A stretch of DNA of 64,000 bases from NCBI GenBank assembly GCA_043814985.1, contig JBDRJK010000019.1, positions 56,561-120,560 of the forward strand, read 5' to 3'. Below are positions 4,760 through 63,981 of this stretch, one piece after another (the first letter of the stretch is position 1; every line of letters starts with the position of its first letter). A program made the translations under genes and the position numbers. The notes beneath the pieces were generated by a model. It was not told where the DNA came from and ran no database searches. It saw only the letters and a list, made by a program, of their open reading frames with translations. This DNA comes from Candidatus Aenigmatarchaeota archaeon. GTDB lineage: Archaea > Aenigmatarchaeota > Aenigmatarchaeia > Aenigmatarchaeales > Aenigmatarchaeaceae.

Positions 4760-5044
4760 ATGGCTAGAATTAATAATACGATAAGAGAATCTTTGGATAA
4801 ACTTAGTTTTCATTTGAGGACAGAAGAAAAGAATGACCATATGTCTATTAAAACCAAGCCTGACATGCTTCTTGAACTGGTCAAGAAAAGAAAGAGGACC
4901 GTTAGGGAATTGTGCAACATACTGGATGTTGATCAAAGAATTCTGTCCAGCTGGGTTAATGCCCTTGAGAGCAATAAAATCCTGAAAACAGAAGCTTCTA
5001 TTTTTGGTGAATCTTTTATTAAACTGAATGGTTACAAGGAATAA
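4760..5044 (+). CDS. Small winged-helix DNA-binding protein
   Basis: KKRKRTVRELCNILDVDQRILSSWVNALESNKILK HTH-like segment. Confidence 0.4.
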   Translation: MARINNTIRESLDKLSFHLRTEEKNDHMSIKTKPDMLLELVKKRKRTVRELCNILDVDQRILSSWVNALESNKILKTEASIFGESFIKLNGYKE

Positions 5045-5280
5045 TAAAATTATATATTAAAATAATTAAAAACAAAAATAAAGATGGTTATATTCTTTAT
5101 TTGACAAAAAAACTTACTTAATAATCATCATCTTCTTTTTGAACTTCTTCTTTCATTTTCTTTTTCTTTGGCATGGATATCACCCCCTGTAGGCACTATC
5201 TCTGACAGATGGAAGAATTATGGACAACCTCTATTTAAACTTTTAACCGTATTTAAACATGACCTCTCACTTGCCAGTTA

Positions 5281-15194: not shown

Positions 15195-16391
15195 ATGGAA
15201 CTGACAAAAGAAGAGAGGGAAATGTTTGTTGGTGAAAGGGGAGAAGGCATACAAAAGGCAATGGAAATAATTGTTGCTTTAGGAAAGATATACAGTGCTG
15301 AAAGGCTCATAAGGGTTACAAGCGTTCAGGTTGCTGGTGTTAGCTACAAGAACCTGGGCGATGCTGGCATTGAATTTCTAGAGGATTGGGCAAGAAAGGG
15401 AGCAAAGATTTCTGTCAGAACTACATTAAATCCTGCAGGCATGGACTTGGAGAACTGGAAGAGATTAGGTTTCAAGGAAGAGTTTGCAAAAAAGCAGCTC
15501 AAAGTAATAGAGGCTTTCAAGAAGATAGGCATATCTCCTGTCTGCACATGCACACCCTACCTGATAGGCAACCTGCCAAAGTTCGGGGAGCATATTGCAT
15601 GGAGCGAGTCGTCTGCTGTTTCCTTTGCCAATTCTGTAATAGGAGCTAGGACCAACAGGGAAGGAGGTCCCTCTGCACTGGCAGCTGCAATAACAGGAAG
15701 GACAGCCTGCTATGGTTTTCATTTGAAGGAGAACCGCAAGGCAGACTTTGTCTTTGATGTGAAGTGCAAGGTTGATGGCTTCTCAGACTTAGGAGCTTTG
15801 GGGAACATTATTGGAAAATCTGTGAAAAACAAGGTACCATACATAATAGGTGTGAAAGAAGAGAATCAGGACAACCTGAAAGTTTTGGGAGCCTCAATGG
15901 CTGCTAGCGGTGCTGTAGCATTATACCATATTGATAATGTTACTCCTGAAGCTAAGATAAGGGACATGAGAAAGGAAGAATTCCAGACCATAGTCATTGA
16001 ATCCTTGGAAGAGGGCTACAAGTCTTTGAACTCTAACGAGAATGAGATAGACTTTGTTAGTATAGGATGCCCTCATGCTTCAGTTGATGAGATTAAGAAG
16101 ATATCAGAACTTGTCATAGGAAAGAAACTCAAGGCAGAACTGTGGGTCACAACCTCAAAACATGTCAAAAAGCTGGCAGACAAATATGTTAGGACAATAG
16201 AGCAAAGCGGCGGCAAGGTCCTAAGTGATACGTGTATGATTGTTGCACCAGTTGAGGATTTTGGTTTCAAGAATCTTGCCACAAACTCTGGCAAGGCTGC
16301 GTTCTATGCGCCTTCTTATTCTAAACTCAATGTCAGGTTCGGCTCGCTTGAACAATGTATTAATGCAGCATTAACAGGTAGATGGGAATGA
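15195..16391 (+). CDS. Aconitase X (AcnX) large subunit, phosphomevalonate dehydratase
   Basis: 398 aa; AcnX-type catalytic domain; coupled to the small subunit downstream. Confidence 0.75.
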   Translation: MELTKEEREMFVGERGEGIQKAMEIIVALGKIYSAERLIRVTSVQVAGVSYKNLGDAGIEFLEDWARKGAKISVRTTLNPAGMDLENWKRLGFKEEFAKKQLKVIEAFKKIGISPVCTCTPYLIGNLPKFGEHIAWSESSAVSFANSVIGARTNREGGPSALAAAITGRTACYGFHLKENRKADFVFDVKCKVDGFSDLGALGNIIGKSVKNKVPYIIGVKEENQDNLKVLGASMAASGAVALYHIDNVTPEAKIRDMRKEEFQTIVIESLEEGYKSLNSNENEIDFVSIGCPHASVDEIKKISELVIGKKLKAELWVTTSKHVKKLADKYVRTIEQSGGKVLSDTCMIVAPVEDFGFKNLATNSGKAAFYAPSYSKLNVRFGSLEQCINAALTGRWE

Positions 16392-27146: not shown

Positions 27147-27262
27147 CCCCGTCTGGCTCAATGGTAGAGCGGTCGGCTGTAGCTTTTTACTGTTGTATTA
27201 AGCATTTAGCAACCGTTCAAACAGAAACCGACAGGTTGGGAGTTCGACTCTCCCGGCGGGGA
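27147..27262 (+). tRNA. tRNA-Tyr (GTA) with 44-nt canonical intron (27183-27226)
   Basis: Acceptor CCCCGTC/GGCGGGG, D-stem GCTC/GAGC, anticodon stem GTCGG/CCGAC, loop CTGTAG^A, T-arm GGGAG-TTCGACT-CTCCC. Confidence 0.6.
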
Positions 27263-27660: not shown

Positions 27661-27780
27661 TGGTTGCCGATCAAAGAGTGTAGGCAAGACCCGTTCCCAT
27701 TTCGAACACGGTAGTGAATCTACATTTCGATTTCGGTTGTACTGTCGAAAAGATGGGAACCCGAAGTAGTTGGCGACCAC
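27661..27780 (+). rRNA. 5S rRNA, stand-alone, embedded in a tRNA cluster
   Basis: Helix I pairs GGTTGCCGA with TTGGCGACC; loop C CCGTTCCCATTTCGAACACGGTAGT and TGTACTG...GGGAACC match archaeal 5S conserved blocks. Confidence 0.7.
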
Positions 27781-27929: not shown

Positions 27930-28187
27930 ATGGTCGTCATACTGAAGCTGAACAAAGGAACAGCAGAGAAGCTTTTGGAATTCACTTACATCAAGCCAGA
28001 GCAGTCTAGGAATCTCTCAGGCAAGGGACTGACATTGGAAATTGATGATAAGGACTTTTTGATAGAAATACACGAAAGGGAAAAGATGATAGAGATAGCG
28101 GACTATAATGGAAGCTTCGGGATATGGTTCAAGCTTACAAAGGAGAAAGTCAAGAAATTGAAGGAAATAGCAAAAATGGGCCCATAA
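27930..28187 (+). CDS. Small hypothetical protein between tRNA-Asp and tRNA-Lys
   Basis: ORF track (internal ATG chosen; the track N-terminus overlaps tRNA-Asp); stop overlaps the tRNA-Lys 5' end. Confidence 0.25.
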   Translation: MVVILKLNKGTAEKLLEFTYIKPEQSRNLSGKGLTLEIDDKDFLIEIHEREKMIEIADYNGSFGIWFKLTKEKVKKLKEIAKMGP

Positions 28188-28299
28188 CTCAGTTGGTAGA
28201 GTGCCAGGCTTTTATCTGTTAGATAAAAGCATGTGTAACGCGAAAGCGTGATGACAGGAAGAAACCTGGAAGTCGTGGGTTCGACCCCCACTGGGCCCA
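28178..28299 (+). tRNA. tRNA-Lys (TTT) with 49-nt intron (28215-28263) containing a C-box-like GTGATGA
   Basis: Acceptor GGGCCCA/TGGGCCC, D-stem ACTC/GAGT, anticodon stem CCAGG/CCTGG, loop CTTTTA^A, T-arm GTGGG-TTCGACC-CCCAC. Confidence 0.6.
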
Positions 28300-28305
28300 C
28301 TTTAT

Positions 28306-28415
28306 GCCGAGATAGCTCAGCCTGGTGGAGCGCCGGTCTCATAAAATCATTATGAGATTTGATCCCAAGATGATATGGAATCCGGAGGTCGAGGGTTCAA
28401 ATCCCTCTCTCGGCA
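28306..28415 (+). tRNA. tRNA with CAT anticodon (Met, or Ile2) carrying a 36-nt intron (28344-28379)
   Basis: Acceptor GCCGAGA/TCTCGGC, D-stem GCTC/GAGC, anticodon stem CCGGT/TCCGG (U31-U39), loop CTCATA^A, T-arm GAGGG-TTCAAAT-CCCTC. Confidence 0.55.
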
Positions 28416-32288: not shown

Positions 32289-32362
32289 GCCTCGATAACT
32301 CAGTTCGGTAGAGTGCCTCACTTGTAATGAGGATGTCGGGGGTTCAAATCCCTCTCGAGGCT
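32289..32362 (+). tRNA. tRNA-Thr (TGT)
   Basis: Acceptor GCCTCGA/TCGAGGC, D-stem ACTC/GAGT, anticodon stem CCTCA/TGAGG, loop CTTGTAA, T-arm GGGGG-TTCAAAT-CCCTC. Confidence 0.75.
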
Positions 32363-32507
32363 TCAGTTTTTTTCAGATATGGAAAATCCAGAATTTAAAT
32401 TAAGGTCTTAAAACACTTTCAACGAGCATTCTCAAGACTTTTTAAAGCTTTCATTAGTTTATAAGATTCCGTATAATTTTATAAATGAGTTTTTCTCTAT
32501 TCTTAAT

Positions 32508-33539
32508 ATGCTTCCTACGGTGAGTTTGATTGTTCCAGCGAGGAACGAGGAGAAGGTTATAGGCAAATGCGTAAGAAGTTTGTTAAATTTGGACTATCCC
32601 AGAGACAAGCTAGAGTTAATAGTTGCAATAGACGGCTCCAAGGACAGAACCTTAGAGATATGCAAGAGCTTTGGTAGGAGAGTGAGGGTCATAAAATCCT
32701 GTCCAAAGACATGCAAGGGAGACGCCTTGAACAATGTGATACCCAAGGCAAAAGGCGAGATAATAGGTATCTATGATGCTGACTGTATTGTTGATAAAAA
32801 CTGCCTGAAACATGCTGTCAAGCACTTTTCTGATAAAAAAATAGCAGGAGTTTGCGGCAATCTCAAGTCCCACAACAAGGAGCAGGGCATGATTGCAAGG
32901 TCACTGGCCCTAGAAACCAGCTTCATATCTTTCATAGAGTACTTCCTTAACAGTCTCGGAGCCAACACACATTTCTTTGGAAAGAACATGTTCATAAGAA
33001 AGAATGTTTTGATGGATGTGGGCTGTTTTGACACTGAGACTTTTGTGGAAGACGTGGAGATGTCAATAAAGCTGAAAAAATACGGTTACAAGACGGTTTT
33101 CGAGCCCAATGCAATTGCATGGAACGAGGAGCCGCCTTCCTTCAGAGCATTCTTCAAGCAGCGTATAAGATGGGCCAGAGGAGCTGCAAAGCTGCTTAAG
33201 TACAAAAGAAGGCATGGAAAGGAATTCTTGTCAGATGCAATGCACGGCATATACTTCTACGTTCCACCTTTCGGTCTTATAACAGCAACTGTCCTTGCAA
33301 TTGTTATGCAGTTCGGCTTGCCCTTTTTCTTGATACTTCCCTTTATTGTCCTTTTTATGTTCAACATGGTTCTGCTGGTTTATTCGAGGATAAAGTTCAA
33401 GGAGCCTATGGGAGATTTGCTTTATCTGCCGGTGTGGTTTGTTTTGAGCAATGTTCACTTGGTCTTGTTGCTCAAAGGCCTTCTAGATGAGAAAATGGAA
33501 AAGAGTGTTTCTTGGAATTCTGTCAGGGCATTTTCTTAA
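32508..33539 (+). CDS. Membrane-anchored family 2 glycosyltransferase (processive-type, C-terminal TM helices)
   Basis: SLIVPARNEEKVI, YDADC, QRIRWARG (QxxRW) motif; C-terminal hydrophobic helices. Confidence 0.7.
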   Translation: MLPTVSLIVPARNEEKVIGKCVRSLLNLDYPRDKLELIVAIDGSKDRTLEICKSFGRRVRVIKSCPKTCKGDALNNVIPKAKGEIIGIYDADCIVDKNCLKHAVKHFSDKKIAGVCGNLKSHNKEQGMIARSLALETSFISFIEYFLNSLGANTHFFGKNMFIRKNVLMDVGCFDTETFVEDVEMSIKLKKYGYKTVFEPNAIAWNEEPPSFRAFFKQRIRWARGAAKLLKYKRRHGKEFLSDAMHGIYFYVPPFGLITATVLAIVMQFGLPFFLILPFIVLFMFNMVLLVYSRIKFKEPMGDLLYLPVWFVLSNVHLVLLLKGLLDEKMEKSVSWNSVRAFS

Positions 33540-33581
33540 ATGTAAATATATAAAAACACTTGCATATTATTCTCTTAAACA

Positions 33582-33690
33582 GGGGTCATAGTCCAACCAG
33601 GCCAAGACGGCTGGCTCCAGTCATGGAGCTTTGATTCCGAAGATGAAAGGAAGAAACCAGCTGATGGGGGTTCAAATCCCTCTGACCCCA
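33582..33690 (+). tRNA. tRNA-Trp (CCA) with 35-nt intron (33621-33655)
   Basis: Acceptor GGGGTCA/TGACCCC, anticodon stem GCTGG/CCAGC, loop CTCCAG^A, T-arm GGGGG-TTCAAAT-CCCTC. Confidence 0.55.
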
Positions 33691-47919: not shown

Positions 47920-48005
47920 GCGGAGGTCCGATAGTCTGGTCAATTCGGTAGGCTTGAGGAGCCTATGGGTTAGTCCCTTCGCAGGTTCAAATCCTGCCCT
48001 CCGCA
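47920..48005 (+). tRNA. tRNA-Leu (GAG), long variable arm
   Basis: Acceptor GCGGAGG/CCTCCGC, anticodon stem TAGGC/GCCTA, loop TTGAGGA, 15-nt variable arm, T-arm GCAGG-TTCAAAT-CCTGC. Confidence 0.7.
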
Positions 48006-48064
48006 CAACATATTTTCTCATGAAGGGCGGCACATTAATAAGCAAAATTTCATAAATTGTTAGT

Positions 48065-48547
48065 ATGAAGAAAAGATATTTTTTGATTATTGCAGTTTTG
48101 ATTTCAATTATAGTATCATTATACTTCTATATATCATATTTTTACATCGCGGAAGTACCAAATGAGTATATAGCTTGTGGTTGTGGTTGCTGTGGTGGTA
48201 TGGAACCTCAAGAAGAATGTATCTACCATTCAAAAGGTGATGATATGAGGTCAATTATTATAAACGATAGGTTAATGTCCAGAGACCCTATATGCCCTAC
48301 GGTTGGGTGTAGTTTTCCTATAAAATATGTCTATTGTGACTGCACTCAAGACAATTCCGGTTCATGTGATAGAACTTGCGAGTCTGATGATGATTGTCAA
48401 TTATCATGTGGTTGTGACTGTATCTCTAAAAACGAAGTTTGTAGATTTGCAGGTACTTTTTGCGAAGAACCGGAAGAAAATCCAAGCCTTTATCAGAAAT
48501 GCATATGTATCAATAACAGATGTGAACTTAAATGGGAAGAGGGTTAA
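48065..48547 (+). CDS. Secreted/membrane-anchored cysteine-rich protein (about 28 Cys in 160 aa)
   Basis: N-terminal TM; CGCGCCGG, CDCTQ, CDRTCESDDDCQLSCGCDC, CICINNRC motifs. Confidence 0.5.
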   Translation: MKKRYFLIIAVLISIIVSLYFYISYFYIAEVPNEYIACGCGCCGGMEPQEECIYHSKGDDMRSIIINDRLMSRDPICPTVGCSFPIKYVYCDCTQDNSGSCDRTCESDDDCQLSCGCDCISKNEVCRFAGTFCEEPEENPSLYQKCICINNRCELKWEEG

Positions 48548-48598
48548 GGGAGAAACGTAGTTTCTCCTTAGGAGGTTCAAATCCTGCTCTCCGCACAT
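48548..48598 (+). repeat. Hairpin plus tRNA-Leu 3'-end-like fragment (27/30 nt identical to 47976-48005)
   Basis: GGAGGTTCAAATCCTGCTCTCCGCACA vs tRNA-Leu GCAGGTTCAAATCCTGCCCTCCGCACA; no 5' half present. Confidence 0.5.
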
Positions 48599-48646
48599 CT
48601 CATGTTCTTCACCGCTTGATGTGAGGGCAGCAATAAGAATAAATTT

Positions 48647-49846
48647 CTAAATTTTTGTTGGAGAAGCTTCTCTCAAATAATTTTTATTGATTTTTATTCT
48701 GGTTCCATTGTGGTAGTATTTTTTCTTTGATAATCTCTCCCATCTTACCTCTTTCCCGAGTATGCTTAAAGTTCTTGCTACAACCAAACAAACAAGGGAC
48801 AGCGCCGAGTCAAAAGTCAAATAAAGAGGGATGAACGGAATAAGACGCCCCTCTTTCATTTTAAACAAACCTATGGAGATAGCTAAGAACGAGATTAGAA
48901 ACGGAATAATAGAAAAAATACGCAATTGCAGGCTGCTCGCAAAAATAAAGGCTATTAAAGAAAACAAACTTATGGTCTGTATAGCCACTGGATTGAGGGA
49001 TATCACCGTTGAGGTAATTTTTTTCTTTCTAAATACGAATCTCGTGGGCATGCTGTACCATCTCAACCTCTGTATAAAAAAGTGATAGACACTCTCGACC
49101 TCCTCTTGCCATACACTTGCACCAGTAACGGCCATCTTCCAGCCCCTGTTTTTCAGATTGCTGGCCATTTCTTCATCTTCTGCGAGCGTCTTTCCATGAC
49201 CACCCACATCTTTCCACGCTTTCCTCTTGAACGAATAATTAGCGCCGCAAATGTACTGTTCAACGCCCATCCTCGCTCTTCCCCAATACGCAACATTTAA
49301 CATCCACACGTCCTCTATGGCCCTCATCCTGGTCAGCAAGTTCTTGTACCAGTTACCGCAGAATACCAATCCCAAGGATGCGCCAATCCTTTTGTCACTC
49401 ATCAGAGTGCGGACGTGTTTCATCAGCCAGTCTCTTTCACATATTCCGTCAGGATCTGTGAGGGCGATGATGTCCCCCTTTGCCACATCTCTTATGGCAT
49501 CGTCAAGGACCTGGCCCTTTCGGTTGTATCCCTTTTTGCTTCTATAATGTTTTATCAGCCCCAATTTCTCGTAGTGCTTGCATATTTTCAGAGTCTTGCC
49601 AGTAGACCCGTTGTCATAAACTATTATCTCGTACTTGTCCTTTGGATAGTTCAATTTAAGGAAGTTTTCGATCTTTCTTTTTATTACATTTCCTGCCCAG
49701 TCGTCCCTGTATGCATATGTCATGACGCTGACCTTTGGCAAGACCTTTGGTTCCTTTGGCTGATAAGGTCTTTTCGCAATAAAGGCATAAAGAAGGTTGA
49801 GTAAGGATGACAGTATGAACAAAGATGATAGTATTTCTGTAAGCAT
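48647..49846 (-). CDS. Family 2 glycosyltransferase with C-terminal TM region
   Basis: KVSVMTYAYRDDW...YDNGSTGKT...DPDG GT-A motifs; 399 aa. Confidence 0.65.
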   Translation of the reverse strand: MLTEILSSLFILSSLLNLLYAFIAKRPYQPKEPKVLPKVSVMTYAYRDDWAGNVIKRKIENFLKLNYPKDKYEIIVYDNGSTGKTLKICKHYEKLGLIKHYRSKKGYNRKGQVLDDAIRDVAKGDIIALTDPDGICERDWLMKHVRTLMSDKRIGASLGLVFCGNWYKNLLTRMRAIEDVWMLNVAYWGRARMGVEQYICGANYSFKRKAWKDVGGHGKTLAEDEEMASNLKNRGWKMAVTGASVWQEEVESVYHFFIQRLRWYSMPTRFVFRKKKITSTVISLNPVAIQTISLFSLIAFIFASSLQLRIFSIIPFLISFLAISIGLFKMKEGRLIPFIPLYLTFDSALSLVCLVVARTLSILGKEVRWERLSKKKYYHNGTRIKINKNYLREASPTKI

Positions 49847-49892
49847 ACTTTATTATTGGTGGCGTTTAAATAAGCTTTTTTATAAATTCTGA

Positions 49893-49919
49893 TCTAGTTC
49901 AAATCCGGCCCTCCGCACC
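49893..49919 (+). repeat. Second tRNA 3'-end-like fragment (TTCAAATCCGGCCCTCCGCACCA)
   Basis: Shares TTCAAATCC..CCCTCCGCAC with tRNA-Leu 3' end; no 5' half. Confidence 0.4.
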
Positions 49920-49952
49920 ATTCTTATTAATCAAGAATTCTAAATTGATAAT

Positions 49953-50792
49953 ATGAAACTAATAATCTTAGGTTCTGGTGGAGCATGGTCTTGTCCCATA
50001 CCCACTTGCTTTTGCGAAAAATGTAGAGAAGCAAGAGACAAGGGAGTGCCTTATTCCAGAGGAGGGCCTTCCTTATTCATAGAAGAGGAGAGCATACTGT
50101 TTGATACCCCGGAGGAAATTACTCAGCAATTAAACAGGGAGAAAGTAAAGAGATTGAGGCACGTATTCTACACTCACTGGCATCCGGACCACACCCAAGG
50201 CATGAGGATATTTGAGAATATTGCAAGACGTTTGAAGCACCCGCAAGAATTACCGTTTGATGCGGAAATGATTGATGTCTATATACCAGTTGAGGTCTAT
50301 GATGATTTCAAAAAGTATTTGTCGAATTTTTTCTATTATGAAGAAAATGGATGGATAAGGGTTCATAAGATAGAAGACAGGAAAGAAATAAAGATAGGAA
50401 GGTTGTCCATAATTCCTCTAAGCTTTAGGGTTCCGGGAAAATCCCGTTATGGGTATCTAATAAAGGAAAGTAAAAAGAAGGTATTCTACGGGCCTTGTAG
50501 CATATGGAGCATGACAACTGACGAGAGCTTTGACAGTACTGATTTAATGCTTATAGAATTTGGTTGGTTAGGGAACACAGAAGAGAAAAGAAAGAATGAT
50601 CCCAAGACTTCATCTATTCACTATCACATAAGCTTTGAAGAGGATATAGAACTTATCAGAAAACTGAAACCTAAACGGACTATACTTACACATATCGACT
50701 ATACGGATTTTGAAAATGCTGAGAGGTTGGTAAAACCATTCAAAAAATTGAATATAGATATAGCATATGATGGCATGAAAATAGAGGTTTGA
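49953..50792 (+). CDS. MBL-fold metallo-hydrolase with N-terminal Cys cluster
   Basis: HTHWHPDHTQG (HxHxDH) motif. Confidence 0.65.
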   Translation: MKLIILGSGGAWSCPIPTCFCEKCREARDKGVPYSRGGPSLFIEEESILFDTPEEITQQLNREKVKRLRHVFYTHWHPDHTQGMRIFENIARRLKHPQELPFDAEMIDVYIPVEVYDDFKKYLSNFFYYEENGWIRVHKIEDRKEIKIGRLSIIPLSFRVPGKSRYGYLIKESKKKVFYGPCSIWSMTTDESFDSTDLMLIEFGWLGNTEEKRKNDPKTSSIHYHISFEEDIELIRKLKPKRTILTHIDYTDFENAERLVKPFKKLNIDIAYDGMKIEV

Positions 50793-50841
50793 TTAGAGTT
50801 CCAACATCCGCATTTTTATTCTAAAAATTCCAACTAACCAT

Positions 50842-51522
50842 ATGGTAGACTGGTTCGGTTCGTTTCCCGTGGCTCCACTGCTTTTCGCGTTTCTGATTCC
50901 AATAGTTTACTCCTTGGTTAAAAGAAAGGAACTCAAATCAATCCTATTAATGACAGCATGCTCAGTAGGGGTCGTTGCCTTCTATCCAATTACTAACTTT
51001 CTGAGCAGCTCCATCCCGTTGTTTGGTTATTTAATAGGAAAAGTCATTCTTTTTGTCTTGTTCCCAATAGGGACAATATTCTTCATAGAGCGCTGGAGCA
51101 TCAAAGACATCTTCACGAACTTGGGTGTCAGAAAGGAGAACCTAAAGAAAAGCATTCTCTATGGTTTATTAGCTGCAGTGGTTACAATAGCCATCACCAC
51201 CTTGATTATTACTAGTAGCCAGATTGATTCTGTCTATAGCACGGTCATGTTTTTCGAGTCCTTCACAGAGGAGTTCTTCTTCAGGGGCTTTTTATTGCTG
51301 TATTTAATGAAAAAGACCAGTCCCAAGGTAGCATATGCAACATCCATACTCGGCTTCATCCTAATACACCCCCAGAACTTTGACAATCTATTTATAATCT
51401 CAACAATGGTGCAGGGAGTTCTGATGACTGTCATTGCCGACAAGACCAAAAACATAGTGGGTCCTTGGGTTGGTCACGGCCTTAATAGGGTTGTTCCCAG
51501 TCTTCTGAGAATCCTTTTCTAG
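50842..51522 (+). CDS. CPBP-family (CAAX protease-like) intramembrane metalloprotease
   Basis: TEEFFFRGFLL (EExxxR) and downstream His motifs; multi-TM. Confidence 0.65.
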   Translation: MVDWFGSFPVAPLLFAFLIPIVYSLVKRKELKSILLMTACSVGVVAFYPITNFLSSSIPLFGYLIGKVILFVLFPIGTIFFIERWSIKDIFTNLGVRKENLKKSILYGLLAAVVTIAITTLIITSSQIDSVYSTVMFFESFTEEFFFRGFLLLYLMKKTSPKVAYATSILGFILIHPQNFDNLFIISTMVQGVLMTVIADKTKNIVGPWVGHGLNRVVPSLLRILF

Positions 51523-51569
51523 ATAATCTATATTTAAAGATTTCTTCCTTACTTTAATCTAGTGATAAG

Positions 51570-51836
51570 ATGGGAACTCCAAACTTTGAAATTAAAAGGG
51601 AAGAACATAAAAAGTGGTTAGAAGAACAAGGGATACCATTTGGAAGATGTGACTATGCTCCTAAAGAGGGGAATCTGGGTACTAACAAGTGTAGCATATA
51701 CTCTCATGTTGATCCTGAATTCCAAGTTTTCACATGCCTTTCTGCATGTGGTAATGAAGTTAATGGTTTTGAGAACAACCTGAAAGTAACGCCATGTGAA
51801 CATAAAAGATTGAAAGACCAATATGAAAAGAAATAA
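51570..51836 (+). CDS. Hypothetical Cys-containing small protein
   Basis: ORF track only. Confidence 0.3.
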   Translation: MGTPNFEIKREEHKKWLEEQGIPFGRCDYAPKEGNLGTNKCSIYSHVDPEFQVFTCLSACGNEVNGFENNLKVTPCEHKRLKDQYEKK

Positions 51837-51839
51837 TAA

Positions 51840-52259
51840 TCAGAATGATTTCATATATTCTCTTATCTTATTAACCGAAATCTTGACTTCTTCAATTATT
51901 TTGTCATTCTTCATGTTCTCTTTGGCATAATTCATGATAGGTCTTACTGACTCTATCTTCCTGCCGAATCTCTCCATCCATCCGTGCCTAGGAAATATCC
52001 AGAGGTGAAATTTATGCTCGGAATCCTCGTTCTGAAAGAGGTAGACATCCTTTATTTTTAGTACTTCCTTCATTCCCCTTCTGAGATTTATTAGCAGTTT
52101 TATGAATTCCTTTGACTCTTCTTCATTGAGGTCAGCAACAGAATTTATCTTCCTTTTGGATGATATTATGAAGAACCCTGGTATGGGAATCTCCCAGTCT
52201 TGGCCAACTTCGAAATGGTTAGTGGTTATTATTGTCTCATCAGGGAATAATTTTTCCAT
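51840..52259 (-). CDS. HIT-like nucleotidyl hydrolase/transferase
   Basis: HKFHLWIFPR histidine-triad-like motif. Confidence 0.5.
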   Translation of the reverse strand: MEKLFPDETIITTNHFEVGQDWEIPIPGFFIISSKRKINSVADLNEEESKEFIKLLINLRRGMKEVLKIKDVYLFQNEDSEHKFHLWIFPRHGWMERFGRKIESVRPIMNYAKENMKNDKIIEEVKISVNKIREYMKSF

Positions 52260-52332: not shown

Positions 52333-52848
52333 ATGAAAAAGACAAAGACTTACGAGAACTTTCCTTTATGGATAGTCGCCTTAACTAACCTTTTCTCCCT
52401 ATCAATCTATCTGATAGGATTATATATTTTCTCAAGATTTGGAATACTATTCGCTGTATTCTTCGCTCTTTACATTATCTGGACTGAATTCCGCTTGGTT
52501 ACAAAATCCTGCAGGAATTGTTATTATTATGGTAAATTCTGTGCATTCGGAAGGGGCAAGTGCTGTTCTCTGTTATTCAAGAAAGGCAGCCCCAAGAGGT
52601 TTGTGAAAAGAAAGGTAACAATGAAAGACCTAATCCCAGATTTCCTATTAACTATACTTCCAATGATAGCAGGAGCCATACTTCTAATATACGACTTTTC
52701 ATGGTGCATTCTTGCATTAATAGCCTTTTTGATTGTTTTCGGATTCTTTGGAAATGCAGTGATCAGGAGCTCTTTCGCCTGTAAATATTGCAAGCAAAGG
52801 AAAATAGGATGCCCTGCAGAAAAGTTATTCAAGAAAAAGAACAAATAA
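52333..52848 (+). CDS. Membrane protein with cytosolic CxxC clusters
   Basis: Four TM helices; CRNCYYYGKFC and CKYCKQRKIGC. Confidence 0.4.
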   Translation: MKKTKTYENFPLWIVALTNLFSLSIYLIGLYIFSRFGILFAVFFALYIIWTEFRLVTKSCRNCYYYGKFCAFGRGKCCSLLFKKGSPKRFVKRKVTMKDLIPDFLLTILPMIAGAILLIYDFSWCILALIAFLIVFGFFGNAVIRSSFACKYCKQRKIGCPAEKLFKKKNK

Positions 52849-52881: not shown

Positions 52882-53586
52882 ATGAAAGGCATGATTGTAC
52901 CTGACCATCTGGGCGTTATTCTTGACGGCAATAGGAGATGGGCTATCGAAAATAAACTGAAGCCTTGGAAAGGCCACGCTTTCGGGGCTGAGAAATTTGA
53001 AAAATTTTTGGAATGGTGTGTGGAATTTGAAATACCTCAAATTTCCGCATATGTCCTATCAACAGAGAACCTTAACAGGTCAAAAAGAGAAGTTGATGCT
53101 CTGCTAGATTTATTCCAAAATGAGCTGGAAAGAGTCGAGAATAATAAGATAAGCCTTCTGGACAAGTATGAGATAAGAATGAAATTTATAGGAGATTTGA
53201 CCAGACTGCCTTTGGGACTCCGTAGAGTAATGGGAAGAATAATGGACAAGACAGAAAAATATAACCAAAGAGTCTTCAACATTATGGTTGCTTATGGTGG
53301 GAAGTTCGAGCTGACAAACGCTGTCAAGAAAATAGCTAAAAAGGCCTTGGAAACAGGCATAGTAACTGTGACCGAGAAGACAATAAAGGACAACCTTATG
53401 GTAAAAGATGATATTGACCTTCTTATTAGGACTGGTGGGGAGAAGAGGCTTTCCAACTTTATGCCAATCCAGGCCGCCTATGCAGAGATGATAGTTCTAA
53501 GAAAATTGTGGCCAGACATCAGGAAAAGCGATCTGAAAAGATGTATTATGGAATACTCTAGAAGGCAGAGAAGATTCGGCCACTAG
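52882..53586 (+). CDS. uppS: cis-Prenyltransferase (undecaprenyl/dolichyl diphosphate synthase)
   Basis: HLGVILDGNRRWA signature; 234 aa. Confidence 0.85.
   Translation: MKGMIVPDHLGVILDGNRRWAIENKLKPWKGHAFGAEKFEKFLEWCVEFEIPQISAYVLSTENLNRSKREVDALLDLFQNELERVENNKISLLDKYEIRMKFIGDLTRLPLGLRRVMGRIMDKTEKYNQRVFNIMVAYGGKFELTNAVKKIAKKALETGIVTVTEKTIKDNLMVKDDIDLLIRTGGEKRLSNFMPIQAAYAEMIVLRKLWPDIRKSDLKRCIMEYSRRQRRFGH

Positions 53587-56852: not shown

Positions 56853-63981
<7,129 letters not shown>

Follow-up and report, generated by a model that had tools for sequence, protein, structure and literature searches.

Copies of a tRNA-Leu 3′ end mark the junctions of a variable island, probably an array of gene cassettes, in an Aenigmatarchaeota genome

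We analyzed a 64,000-nucleotide stretch of DNA from a Candidatus Aenigmatarchaeota archaeon (contig JBDRJK010000019.1, positions 56,561 to 120,560; hereafter the window), in which an intact tRNA-Leu(GAG) gene is followed by partial copies of its own 3′ end. These copies are the junctions of a variable island of about 5 kb that runs from the tRNA-Leu gene to a gene for UPP synthase (~47.9–52.9 kb), and their interpretation as recombination junctions at a tRNA-derived site is well supported. We consider it probable that the island is a tRNA-anchored array of gene cassettes, with the tRNA-derived unit serving as a re-usable recombination site. An earlier note, made from the sequence alone, had seen in the copies the footprint of integrase-mediated insertion. 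A recombination junction with variable cargo is indeed what we find, but the history implied by that reading, of decayed elements that once carried an integrase, is not borne out.

Results

The tRNA-Leu 3′ end recurs without the rest of the tRNA

The tRNA-Leu(GAG) gene at the head of the array is the only one called there (47920–48006/48005, + strand; ARAGORN, and Rfam at 49.6 bits). Its 3′-terminal 24-mer, GGTTCAAATCCTGCCCTCCGCACA, matches the + strand at 47984–48007 with no mismatches, at 48574–48597 with one and at 49896–49919 with three, and had no matches across 100 shuffles. The tRNA end thus recurs twice in the same orientation, as the earlier note had stated, although the repeated string is 24 rather than 27 nucleotides (nt) long. 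Within these matches, core copy 1 occupies 47985–48005, core copy 2 (GTTCAAATCCTGCTCTCCGCA, one mismatch) 48575–48595 and core copy 3 (GTTCAAATCCGGCCCTCCGCA) 49897–49917, all on the + strand. The resemblance of copy 2 to the tRNA-Leu end covers 43 nt at 84%. A fourth copy, with an internally deleted core, GTTCCAACATCCGCA, lies at 50798–50812 (50798–50823 with its flank, + strand). There are therefore at least four copies, and the island reaches to ~52.85 kb; the two segments ending at 49919 that had been described capture the repeats but not the full extent. No orphan 3′ copies were found for the other seven tRNA genes of the window. The island shows no anomaly in GC content or skew, and we rejected foreign base composition as a sign of its origin.

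Copies 2 and 3 both lack the 5′ half of the tRNA, also as previously noted: their identity to the tRNA ends, going upstream, at the T-loop, and Rfam gave no match at the orphan copies even in E-value mode at E = 1. We considered whether they might be independent, degenerate tRNA-Leu pseudogenes or the 3′ halves of split tRNA genes, given their identity to the tRNA 3′ end and the presence of introns in several tRNAs of the window. Split tRNA genes were discovered in a species counted among the DPANN archaea, and those of Nanoarchaeum and Caldivirga resemble the copies here in being stand-alone tRNA pieces in a DPANN-type genome. Those genes, however, break at position 37/38 (or 25/26), and complementary leaders rebuild a functional tRNA from them, whereas the orphans here start at the T-loop (identity begins at 53/54), decay, and coexist with an intact tRNA-Leu(GAG) gene. 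They lack an anticodon, a D-arm and the acceptor 5′ strand, and the 5′ strand of the T-stem is broken in copies 2 and 3. What lies upstream of orphans is a stop codon and a hairpin, or a putative promoter, with no partner pieces, and relatives have many copies per locus. With Rfam silent as well, the idea of pseudogenes, which had been named as what would overturn the earlier reading, or of split halves is effectively refuted.

An insertion inside an ancestral copy

Contexts in relatives were gathered by looking up homologs of two island genes, a GT2-family glycosyltransferase and an MBL-fold hydrolase; related loci are designated below by L numbers. A scan of genomes for synteny based on SRP54 gave one locus at 93% that was too short (L001), and others at 55% or less that were not syntenic. 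Four genomes, those of the window, L081, L086 and L087, share a neighborhood of SRP54, Pus10, dCMP deaminase and L21e, followed beyond the island by UPP synthase and LysRS. Between these borders the window has, in order, tRNA-Leu, a Cys-rich gene, copy 2, GT2 on the opposite strand, copy 3, MBL, the partial copy 4, a CPBP gene, an 88-aa gene, a HIT-like gene, a 171-aa gene and UPP synthase. L081 has tRNA-Leu(GAG), an unrelated 133-aa gene, GT2, an ortholog of copy 3 (ctaGTTCAAATCTTGCCATCCGCA) and different small genes, with no copy 2. L086, the closest relative by LysRS and UPP synthase (85%), has a 338-aa gene, GT2 and a 75-aa gene, and neither copy 2 nor copy 3; L087 has six other genes from tRNA-Leu to GT2. 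Because these contents differ, the interval from tRNA-Leu to UPP synthase is variable except for GT2. The synteny check proposed in the earlier note therefore came out in favor of variable cargo: L081 and L086 lack both the Cys-rich gene and copy 2, and the MBL site is uninterrupted in L081.

At that site L081 has a single continuous copy, GTTCAAATCTTGCCATCCGCAtttttattcta, in the place where the window has copy 3, the MBL gene and then, directly after the MBL stop codon, GTTCCAACATCCGCAtttttattcta (50798–50823). The 5′ part of the window's copy 3 is orthologous to L081 copy 3, and the 19-mer CATCCGCATTTTTATTCTA (50805–50823) is exactly the 3′ part and flank of that copy (0 such matches expected); it was found nowhere else in the window or in 133 loci. 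Since the window's copies 3 and 4 split between them the single copy of L081, the MBL gene was inserted into an ancestral copy 3. Relative to L081, the insertion starts inside the core and ends inside the core with MBL between, which is the classical signature of a duplicated site, and L081 supplies the uninterrupted state that a comparison of island presence and absence calls for. The inserted segment, cassette 3 (49918–50792, + strand), comprises the hydrolase gene (49953–50792) and its own upstream motif, GAATTCTAAATTGATAATATG; the motif TTCTAAATTGAT upstream of MBL occurs once in the window, and we rejected its re-use elsewhere.

The closest homolog of this MBL gene, 75% identical, lies in L133, in an array built on a different isoacceptor, tRNA-Leu(TAA), and is placed between units of that type. 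There the tRNA and ~75 nt of trailer are duplicated 1.3 kb downstream, ahead of MBL (~100 nt at ~90% identity), and the MBL gene is followed by a hairpin, GAAAGAAACC-gta-GGTGTCTTTC, of the type that we call type 1, abutting GTTCAAATCCCAGCTACCGCA.

Units of common architecture across the lineage

The repeated entity is larger than an attachment (att) core: it is a structured unit of ~100–130 nt, made up of a hairpin, the core, an inverted repeat and a putative promoter, in an arrangement that is present after the intact tRNA too. Scanning metagenomes for the core together with its inverted repeat gave 36 further loci, and altogether we found 74 units in 44 Aenigmatarchaeota sequences. All 31 adjacent pairs, from the 20 loci with two or more units, are co-oriented, at spacings of 322–4948 nt (median ~670 nt). 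L083 has the most, with seven counted and at least seven co-oriented within 7 kb. It belongs to a second clade (L082, L083, L089, L091 and L124), whose arrays lie between SerRS–EamA and topoisomerase I, around GT2.

Among the 56 orphan units, 38 have a perfect 21-nt core, GTTCAAATCCTGCCCTCCGCA, which runs from the T-loop to the tRNA 3′ end; identity to the tRNA falls to ~50% over the 5′ strand of the T-stem and to background further 5′. An inverted repeat of the core, GGAGGGCGG, follows ~30 nt downstream in 35 of the 56, and 42 have a TATA-like box. In 48 of the 56 a co-oriented open reading frame (ORF) starts 30–170 nt downstream, usually 71–86 nt past the core, and many of these starts have the form TAGTGATAAA-ATG. 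The typical order is thus hairpin, 21-nt core, inverted repeat, a module with TATA-like and Shine–Dalgarno (SD)-like motifs, and the next gene. The trailer of orphan units is also found 3′ of genuine tRNA-Leu genes.

The structured parts are conserved as structures. Hairpins of two families directly precede many of the cores. The hairpin that we call type 2, AAAGCTTCTT-cta-AAGAAGCTTT, is 100% paired over nine distinct sequences (90/90 cells); both partners have changed in four pairs and a single partner in none, a result reached in 0 of 500 shuffles. The type-1 hairpin, GAGAAAC-gta-GTTTCTC, which precedes copy 2 of the window, is 95% paired with three compensated pairs; its family stands 5′ of cores in L083, L110, L127, L106 and L133, again with compensatory changes. 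In single-strand folding, GCCCTCC of the core pairs consistently with a downstream GGAGGGC. A C/D-box or k-turn RNA in the loop of the trailer, or R-arm (CTGATG ... CTGA), was rejected by eye, as the boxes vary among copies.

Identical modules stand beside different neighbors, and gene content and sequence similarity break at the units. A 180-aa gene shared by L083 and L124 has an upstream part and L-arm that are 97% identical, falling to 62% directly past the core; the tRNA-Leu genes of L093 and L122 match fully as far as their 3′ end, past which the sequences are unrelated; and a 140-aa gene of L089 and L121 is 96–98% identical from the TATA box on and not before. Break points thus cluster at the 3′ border of the core and where the inverted-repeat segment ends. 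The genes in the arrays include MNT/HEPN pairs, HTH proteins, VIT1, zinc-ribbon proteins and many unknowns.

Several further observations concern the arrays themselves. Toxin–antitoxin-like pairs (NTP_transf_2/HEPN; MazE/ParE) occur in or beside them, as in chromosomal integrons (L083 10175–11360 and 12720–13650; L091 9905–10817; L131 11314–11857). Contigs end inside units, and the 3′ end of L117 stops within a type-2 hairpin, which suggests that unit repeats break metagenome-assembled genomes (MAGs) and that arrays are under-represented. ARAGORN missed a tRNA-Leu(GAG) of L127 whose anticodon is followed by an intron (~843–1000, − strand), and L104 has a tRNA-Leu 3′ portion with an insert of ~23 nt in the variable arm (~160–250, + strand).

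We asked whether the units might primarily be expression signals that spread from gene to gene because they work: a terminator or 3′-stabilizing hairpin combined with an element from the tRNA and a promoter. The array would then be a by-product. The position of 48 of the 56 orphans between co-oriented genes, with the next start behind TATA- and SD-like motifs, would fit this explanation, as would the co-varying hairpins directly after stop codons. It leaves unexplained why the conserved center is exactly the tRNA T-loop-to-3′-end, why units cluster by tRNA-Leu or in one array per locus with uniform co-orientation, and why gene content breaks at the core; moreover, the promoter-like arm of copy 2 faces the end of a convergent gene, and the orphans are not tRNA-like by Rfam. 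We regard this explanation as very improbable.

We favor a re-usable recombination site because the units are co-oriented, the boundary of identity is sharp at the T-loop, the hairpins and inverted repeat are conserved in structure, and MBL was inserted into a pre-existing copy. Under such a model, the unit from the tRNA T-loop to the 3′ end would be the site for the insertion, loss and exchange of small modules, each usually a single gene that has a TATA/SD-like module of its own. Each insertion would regenerate the tRNA or the unit and shift the older copy downstream, giving a co-oriented array. The crossover would lie in or beside the core, the AT-rich boxes would act as promoters, and the movement of modules would presumably be catalyzed by a recombinase acting in trans, since we found none encoded by the arrays themselves.

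Apparent exchange of the GT2 segment

The second segment was correctly described before as holding a GT2 glycosyltransferase on the opposite strand (48647–49846, − strand; PF00535/PF13641/PF13632). The protein has 399 aa in the window and 390 aa in relatives. All eight of the related genomes that we examined have GT2 once, and no other gene of the island is conserved throughout them; GT2 homologs in the Aenigmatarchaeota lineage form a graded series of 66–88% identity. The proposal that this segment arrived as the cargo of an element does not fit such a distribution: GT2 is not lineage-specific, and the copy 3 that adjoins it is orthologous in L081.

Its synonymous divergence is several-fold lower than that of its neighbors. 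Between the window and L081, pS is 0.39 for GT2 (dS 0.54) and 0.76–0.79 for LysRS, UPP synthase, Pus10 and dCMP deaminase; between the window and L086 it is 0.48 against 0.72 for LysRS and UPP synthase, and between L081 and L086 it is 0.52 against 0.71–0.82 for the same two genes. In these comparisons the flanking housekeeping genes are at or near synonymous saturation. The similarity has limits at the units on both sides. The region upstream of GT2 (49847–49896, − strand), which has TATA-like boxes, is 87% identical to L081, and identity to L081 stays at 86–89% over the non-coding DNA between the GT2 start and copy 3, past which it falls to 52%. On the other side, homology with L081 and L086 begins only at ~48672, at the GT2 C-terminus, which is the end of the R-arm of copy 2 (48596–48672, + strand; a loop, the inverted repeat GAGGGCAG at 48623–48630 and a TATA-like box). 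This R-arm supplies the last nine codons of the window's GT2 ORF. Because pS is 0.39–0.52 for GT2 and 0.71–0.82 for the flanking genes, GT2 appears to have been exchanged recently; the simplest reading of these sequence comparisons suggests that a unit-bounded GT2 segment was swapped among lineages long after their divergence.

The promoter-like arm of copy 2 is directed at the 3′ end of GT2, which is convergent to it, and this putative promoter could drive antisense transcription of GT2.

Recombinases, viruses and circles

Several results and caveats weigh against the model that we favor. We found no Pfam or PHROG integrase among window ORFs of at least 230 aa, the island genes or 27 unit-adjoining ORFs, no integrase domain in any cassette protein tested, and no integrase fragment in the window or in the tested ORFs beside the 74 units. 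No integrase-like ORF spans any of 66 cores, and the core-crossing frames of at least 60 codons just enter neighboring genes. Scans of IMG/VR with both core forms, the TAA-type core and the junction of hairpin and T-loop gave zero viral matches. The 17 full-length short contigs have no terminal overlap and none is circular. Break points do not fall at one fixed nucleotide, and the arrays of L082, L083, L089 and L124 start behind the stop codon of EamA, with no intact tRNA at their head. The low pS of GT2 could in part be an effect of codon constraint. Most of the related loci come from one sediment metagenome series, which makes the breadth of the phenomenon uncertain. Ordinary homologous recombination with units of ~100 nt is also a serious rival.

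On these results we rejected a viral or plasmid attP and excised circular cassettes. An SSV-type split integrase, read through a mini-ORF M..ILDKASSKEALFKSCPPH across the type-2 hairpin and core, was rejected as well, as no long ORF continues past any core and the changes in the hairpin are compensatory, not coding. No tycheposon integrase or replication module was present in the loci fetched, a search that did not extend to whole genomes.

The same results bear on the possibility that each segment is a decayed remnant of a larger virus or plasmid whose tyrosine integrase inserted it at tRNA-Leu and which later lost that integrase and most of its genes. Such decay is documented elsewhere, in the 9–23 kb elements of Thermococcaceae (PMC9897764) and in degenerate tycheposons (10.1101/2020.12.28.424599), and it would account for duplicated tRNA 3′ ends beside an intact tRNA, for cargo that varies between relatives and for mismatches that grow with distance from the tRNA (one, three, then an internal deletion). 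Set against it, besides the missing integrase and viral attP and the unremarkable GC content, are modules that are compact and keep their promoter-like and hairpin ends intact, and identical modules found entire in more than one array, an outcome not to be expected of random decay. We think this history quite unlikely, and nothing we found supports the earlier description of the two segments as successive, now integrase-less element remnants; no viral contig in IMG/VR carries the cores or the junction.

The serious rival needs no dedicated recombinase. The ~100-nt units would be portable blocks of homology, and homologous recombination and gene conversion with the tRNA would loop modules out, re-insert them and swap them between cells. 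The duplicated block does extend past the tRNA into the trailer, as in the ~100 nt of L133, type-A R-arms follow most cores, break points lie at more than one position, no integrase is encoded in cis, and the perfect cores of orphans could be kept by conversion from the tRNA. Yet identity starts sharply at the T-loop, the known crossover location of tRNA-targeting integrases. The hairpins that abut the core keep their pairing through compensatory changes, and the inverted repeat of the core is kept even after true tRNA genes, where competition with the acceptor stem would be expected. Because of the T-loop boundary, the compensated hairpins and the conserved inverted repeat, the unit looks like a site recognized by a protein or by its structure. 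We therefore hold homologous recombination alone to be unlikely, while taking it seriously, and continue to prefer a re-usable, tRNA-derived site.

Remaining features of the island and window

The trailer, or R-arm, after the tRNA (48007–48064, + strand) contains a partial inverted repeat of the core, GAAGGGCGGCA, at 48022–48032 and a TATA-like AT-rich stretch ~25 nt before the ATG at 48065; it has the same architecture as the trailers of tRNA-Leu genes and orphan units in relatives. Cassette 1 (48065–48547, + strand) encodes a protein of 160 aa that contains 20 Cys and begins with a hydrophobic segment, in agreement with the Cys-rich gene described for segment 1, and ends in the type-1 L-arm hairpin GGAGAAAC-gta-GTTTCTCC (48549–48567, + strand), a perfect 8-bp hairpin directly 5′ of copy 2. 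The protein had no Pfam or PHROG match, and its gene is absent from all related loci examined. Homologs share only a domain of ~60 aa, in proteins of unrelated organisms, and have no unit nearby. NCBI annotation (P0199) covers the last 100 aa only. The 160-aa form is probably the correct one, because ATG 48065 lies at the usual distance behind a TATA-like box and adds the hydrophobic N-terminal segment, from which the product is putatively membrane-anchored or secreted. A surface-related role, as proposed before for the cargo, is putative, and plausible only for GT2 and this Cys-rich protein.

Beyond copy 4 lie a gene for a CPBP/Rce1-like intramembrane protease, which is not in the islands of relatives (50842–51522, + strand), and a coreless type-A promoter module, ATTTAAAGATT, 17 nt and TAGTGATAAG-ATG, with its 88-aa gene (51532–51836, + strand). 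The HIT-like gene (51840–52259, − strand) and the gene for a 171-aa membrane protein (52333–52848, + strand) follow, and the UPP synthase gene at 52882 is the conserved right border. Upstream of the tRNA-Leu head are L21e, a kinase-like gene and the dCMP deaminase.

We also noted features outside the island. A 1911-aa ORF (58246–63981, − strand) with Rpb2 (RpoB) and Rpb1 N-terminal (RpoA′) domains appears to be a fusion of two genes for RNA polymerase subunits; a separate Rpb1_5 (RpoA″) gene comes after it, and the arrangement is conserved in at least three Aenigmatarchaeota genomes (the window; L081 1–649; L087 1–1287). Four tRNA genes of 109–122 nt, presumably intron-containing, were detected by Rfam only and missed by ARAGORN (27147–27262, 28178–28299, 28306–28415 and 33582–33690); they cluster with a 5S rRNA gene (27663–27778). 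A second GT2-family glycosyltransferase (32508–33539) lies between tRNA-Thr and an intron-containing tRNA (32289–33690), with no orphan copies of either tRNA found in the window. In the relatives, L086 ends in ~240 nt of GC-rich sequence in an AT-rich genome, upstream of the 338-aa gene (4840–5073, − strand), a stretch that may represent either a structured RNA or a chimeric assembly; L081 has a LAGLIDADG homing-endonuclease gene between Pus10 and a Methyltrn_RNA_2 gene (15211–16047), where the window has none; and an intein interrupts topoisomerase I in L091 (1167–4922).

Discussion

The island is tRNA-anchored in principle and integron-like in grain and architecture, with no linked recombinase found. 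Its first kinship is with tRNA islands. It is established that tRNA att sites can be used again in tandem, with partial tRNAs left behind (Krupovic et al. 2019, PMC6563490), and partial tRNAs are scattered through the variable tycheposon islands of Prochlorococcus (bioRxiv 10.1101/2020.12.28.424599), as partial tRNAs are here by a full one. In both cases an intact tRNA heads the island, partial 3′ copies mark successive junctions with newer insertions displacing the earlier ones outward, close relatives differ in their cargo, and the remnants are devoid of integrases. Unlike those islands, the arrays described here consist mostly of single-gene modules of 0.3–2 kb with hairpin, inverted-repeat and promoter-like ends, belong to a DPANN host, show no integrase, integrase fragment or replication module in the tested ORFs, and in some cases lack an intact tRNA head. 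Of the features of Islander-type islands, the intact tRNA with a displaced direct 3′ copy is present, whereas a tyrosine or serine integrase gene inside the island, usually placed beside the tRNA, was not found.

The tRNA 3′ part is likewise duplicated, with identity starting in a tRNA stem-loop, in SSV- and pNOB8-type, PYG1 and TKV elements, and tRNA fragments in Thermococcaceae derive from integrated elements (PMC9897764). Those elements measure 9–23 kb or more and carry an integrase, whereas we found none; in the SSV type int is split at the att site, whereas no ORF spans the core here.

The second kinship is with integrons and clusters of attC sites lacking integron-integrases (CALINs). 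These share with our arrays short, co-oriented, mostly single-gene cassettes, structured, hairpin-forming sites less than 4 kb apart, toxin–antitoxin-like (MNT/HEPN) pairs, and the frequent absence of an integrase from the contig. The site here is a tRNA T-loop-to-3′-end core and, to judge by eye, not R″-L″-L′-R′, the cassettes seem to carry their own promoters in place of a common Pc, and the head is a tRNA gene and not intI/attI; neither an integrase in the window nor the combination of IntI, attI and Pc was found. By eye, GTTCAAA of the core fits GTTRRRY of attC at five of seven positions, and no R″ partner was seen upstream of the hairpin. Integrons in archaeal MAGs, including one Aenigmatarchaeota CALIN, use canonical attC sites (PMC9668308), and the window core string was not found in the supplementary tables of that study. 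A canonical integron attC site is therefore improbable, on the poor fit to GTTRRRY and the absence of the string from that supplement. In the literature searched we met no account of tRNA-Leu cassette arrays from DPANN archaea.

The genomes of DPANN archaea are minimal, these archaea rely on hosts, and few mobile elements have been recognized in them; how they gain and shuffle accessory genes is largely obscure. It is possible, though on balance doubtful, that Aenigmatarchaeota and perhaps other DPANN archaea possess an integron-like form of gene capture, in which the T-loop-to-3′-end of tRNA-Leu (GAG and TAA) would be the site, the cassettes would be promoter-bearing, hairpin-ended single genes, and an unlinked recombinase, encoded on the chromosome or an episome, would move them between arrays and lineages. 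A recombinase that recognizes the hairpin, GTTCAAATCC and the inverted repeat would then be the thing to search for, and the 21-nt core could mark such islands in metagenomes. For annotation, the units account for contig breaks in MAGs and flag real small genes, and they should not be labeled tRNA pseudogenes. If our interpretation is true, the tRNA-Leu cassette island would be a dedicated platform for gene exchange in DPANN archaea, akin to integrons or the Prochlorococcus tRNA islands, with a cargo that includes a glycosyltransferase, a putative Cys-rich envelope protein, a hydrolase, a protease and toxin–antitoxin-like modules.

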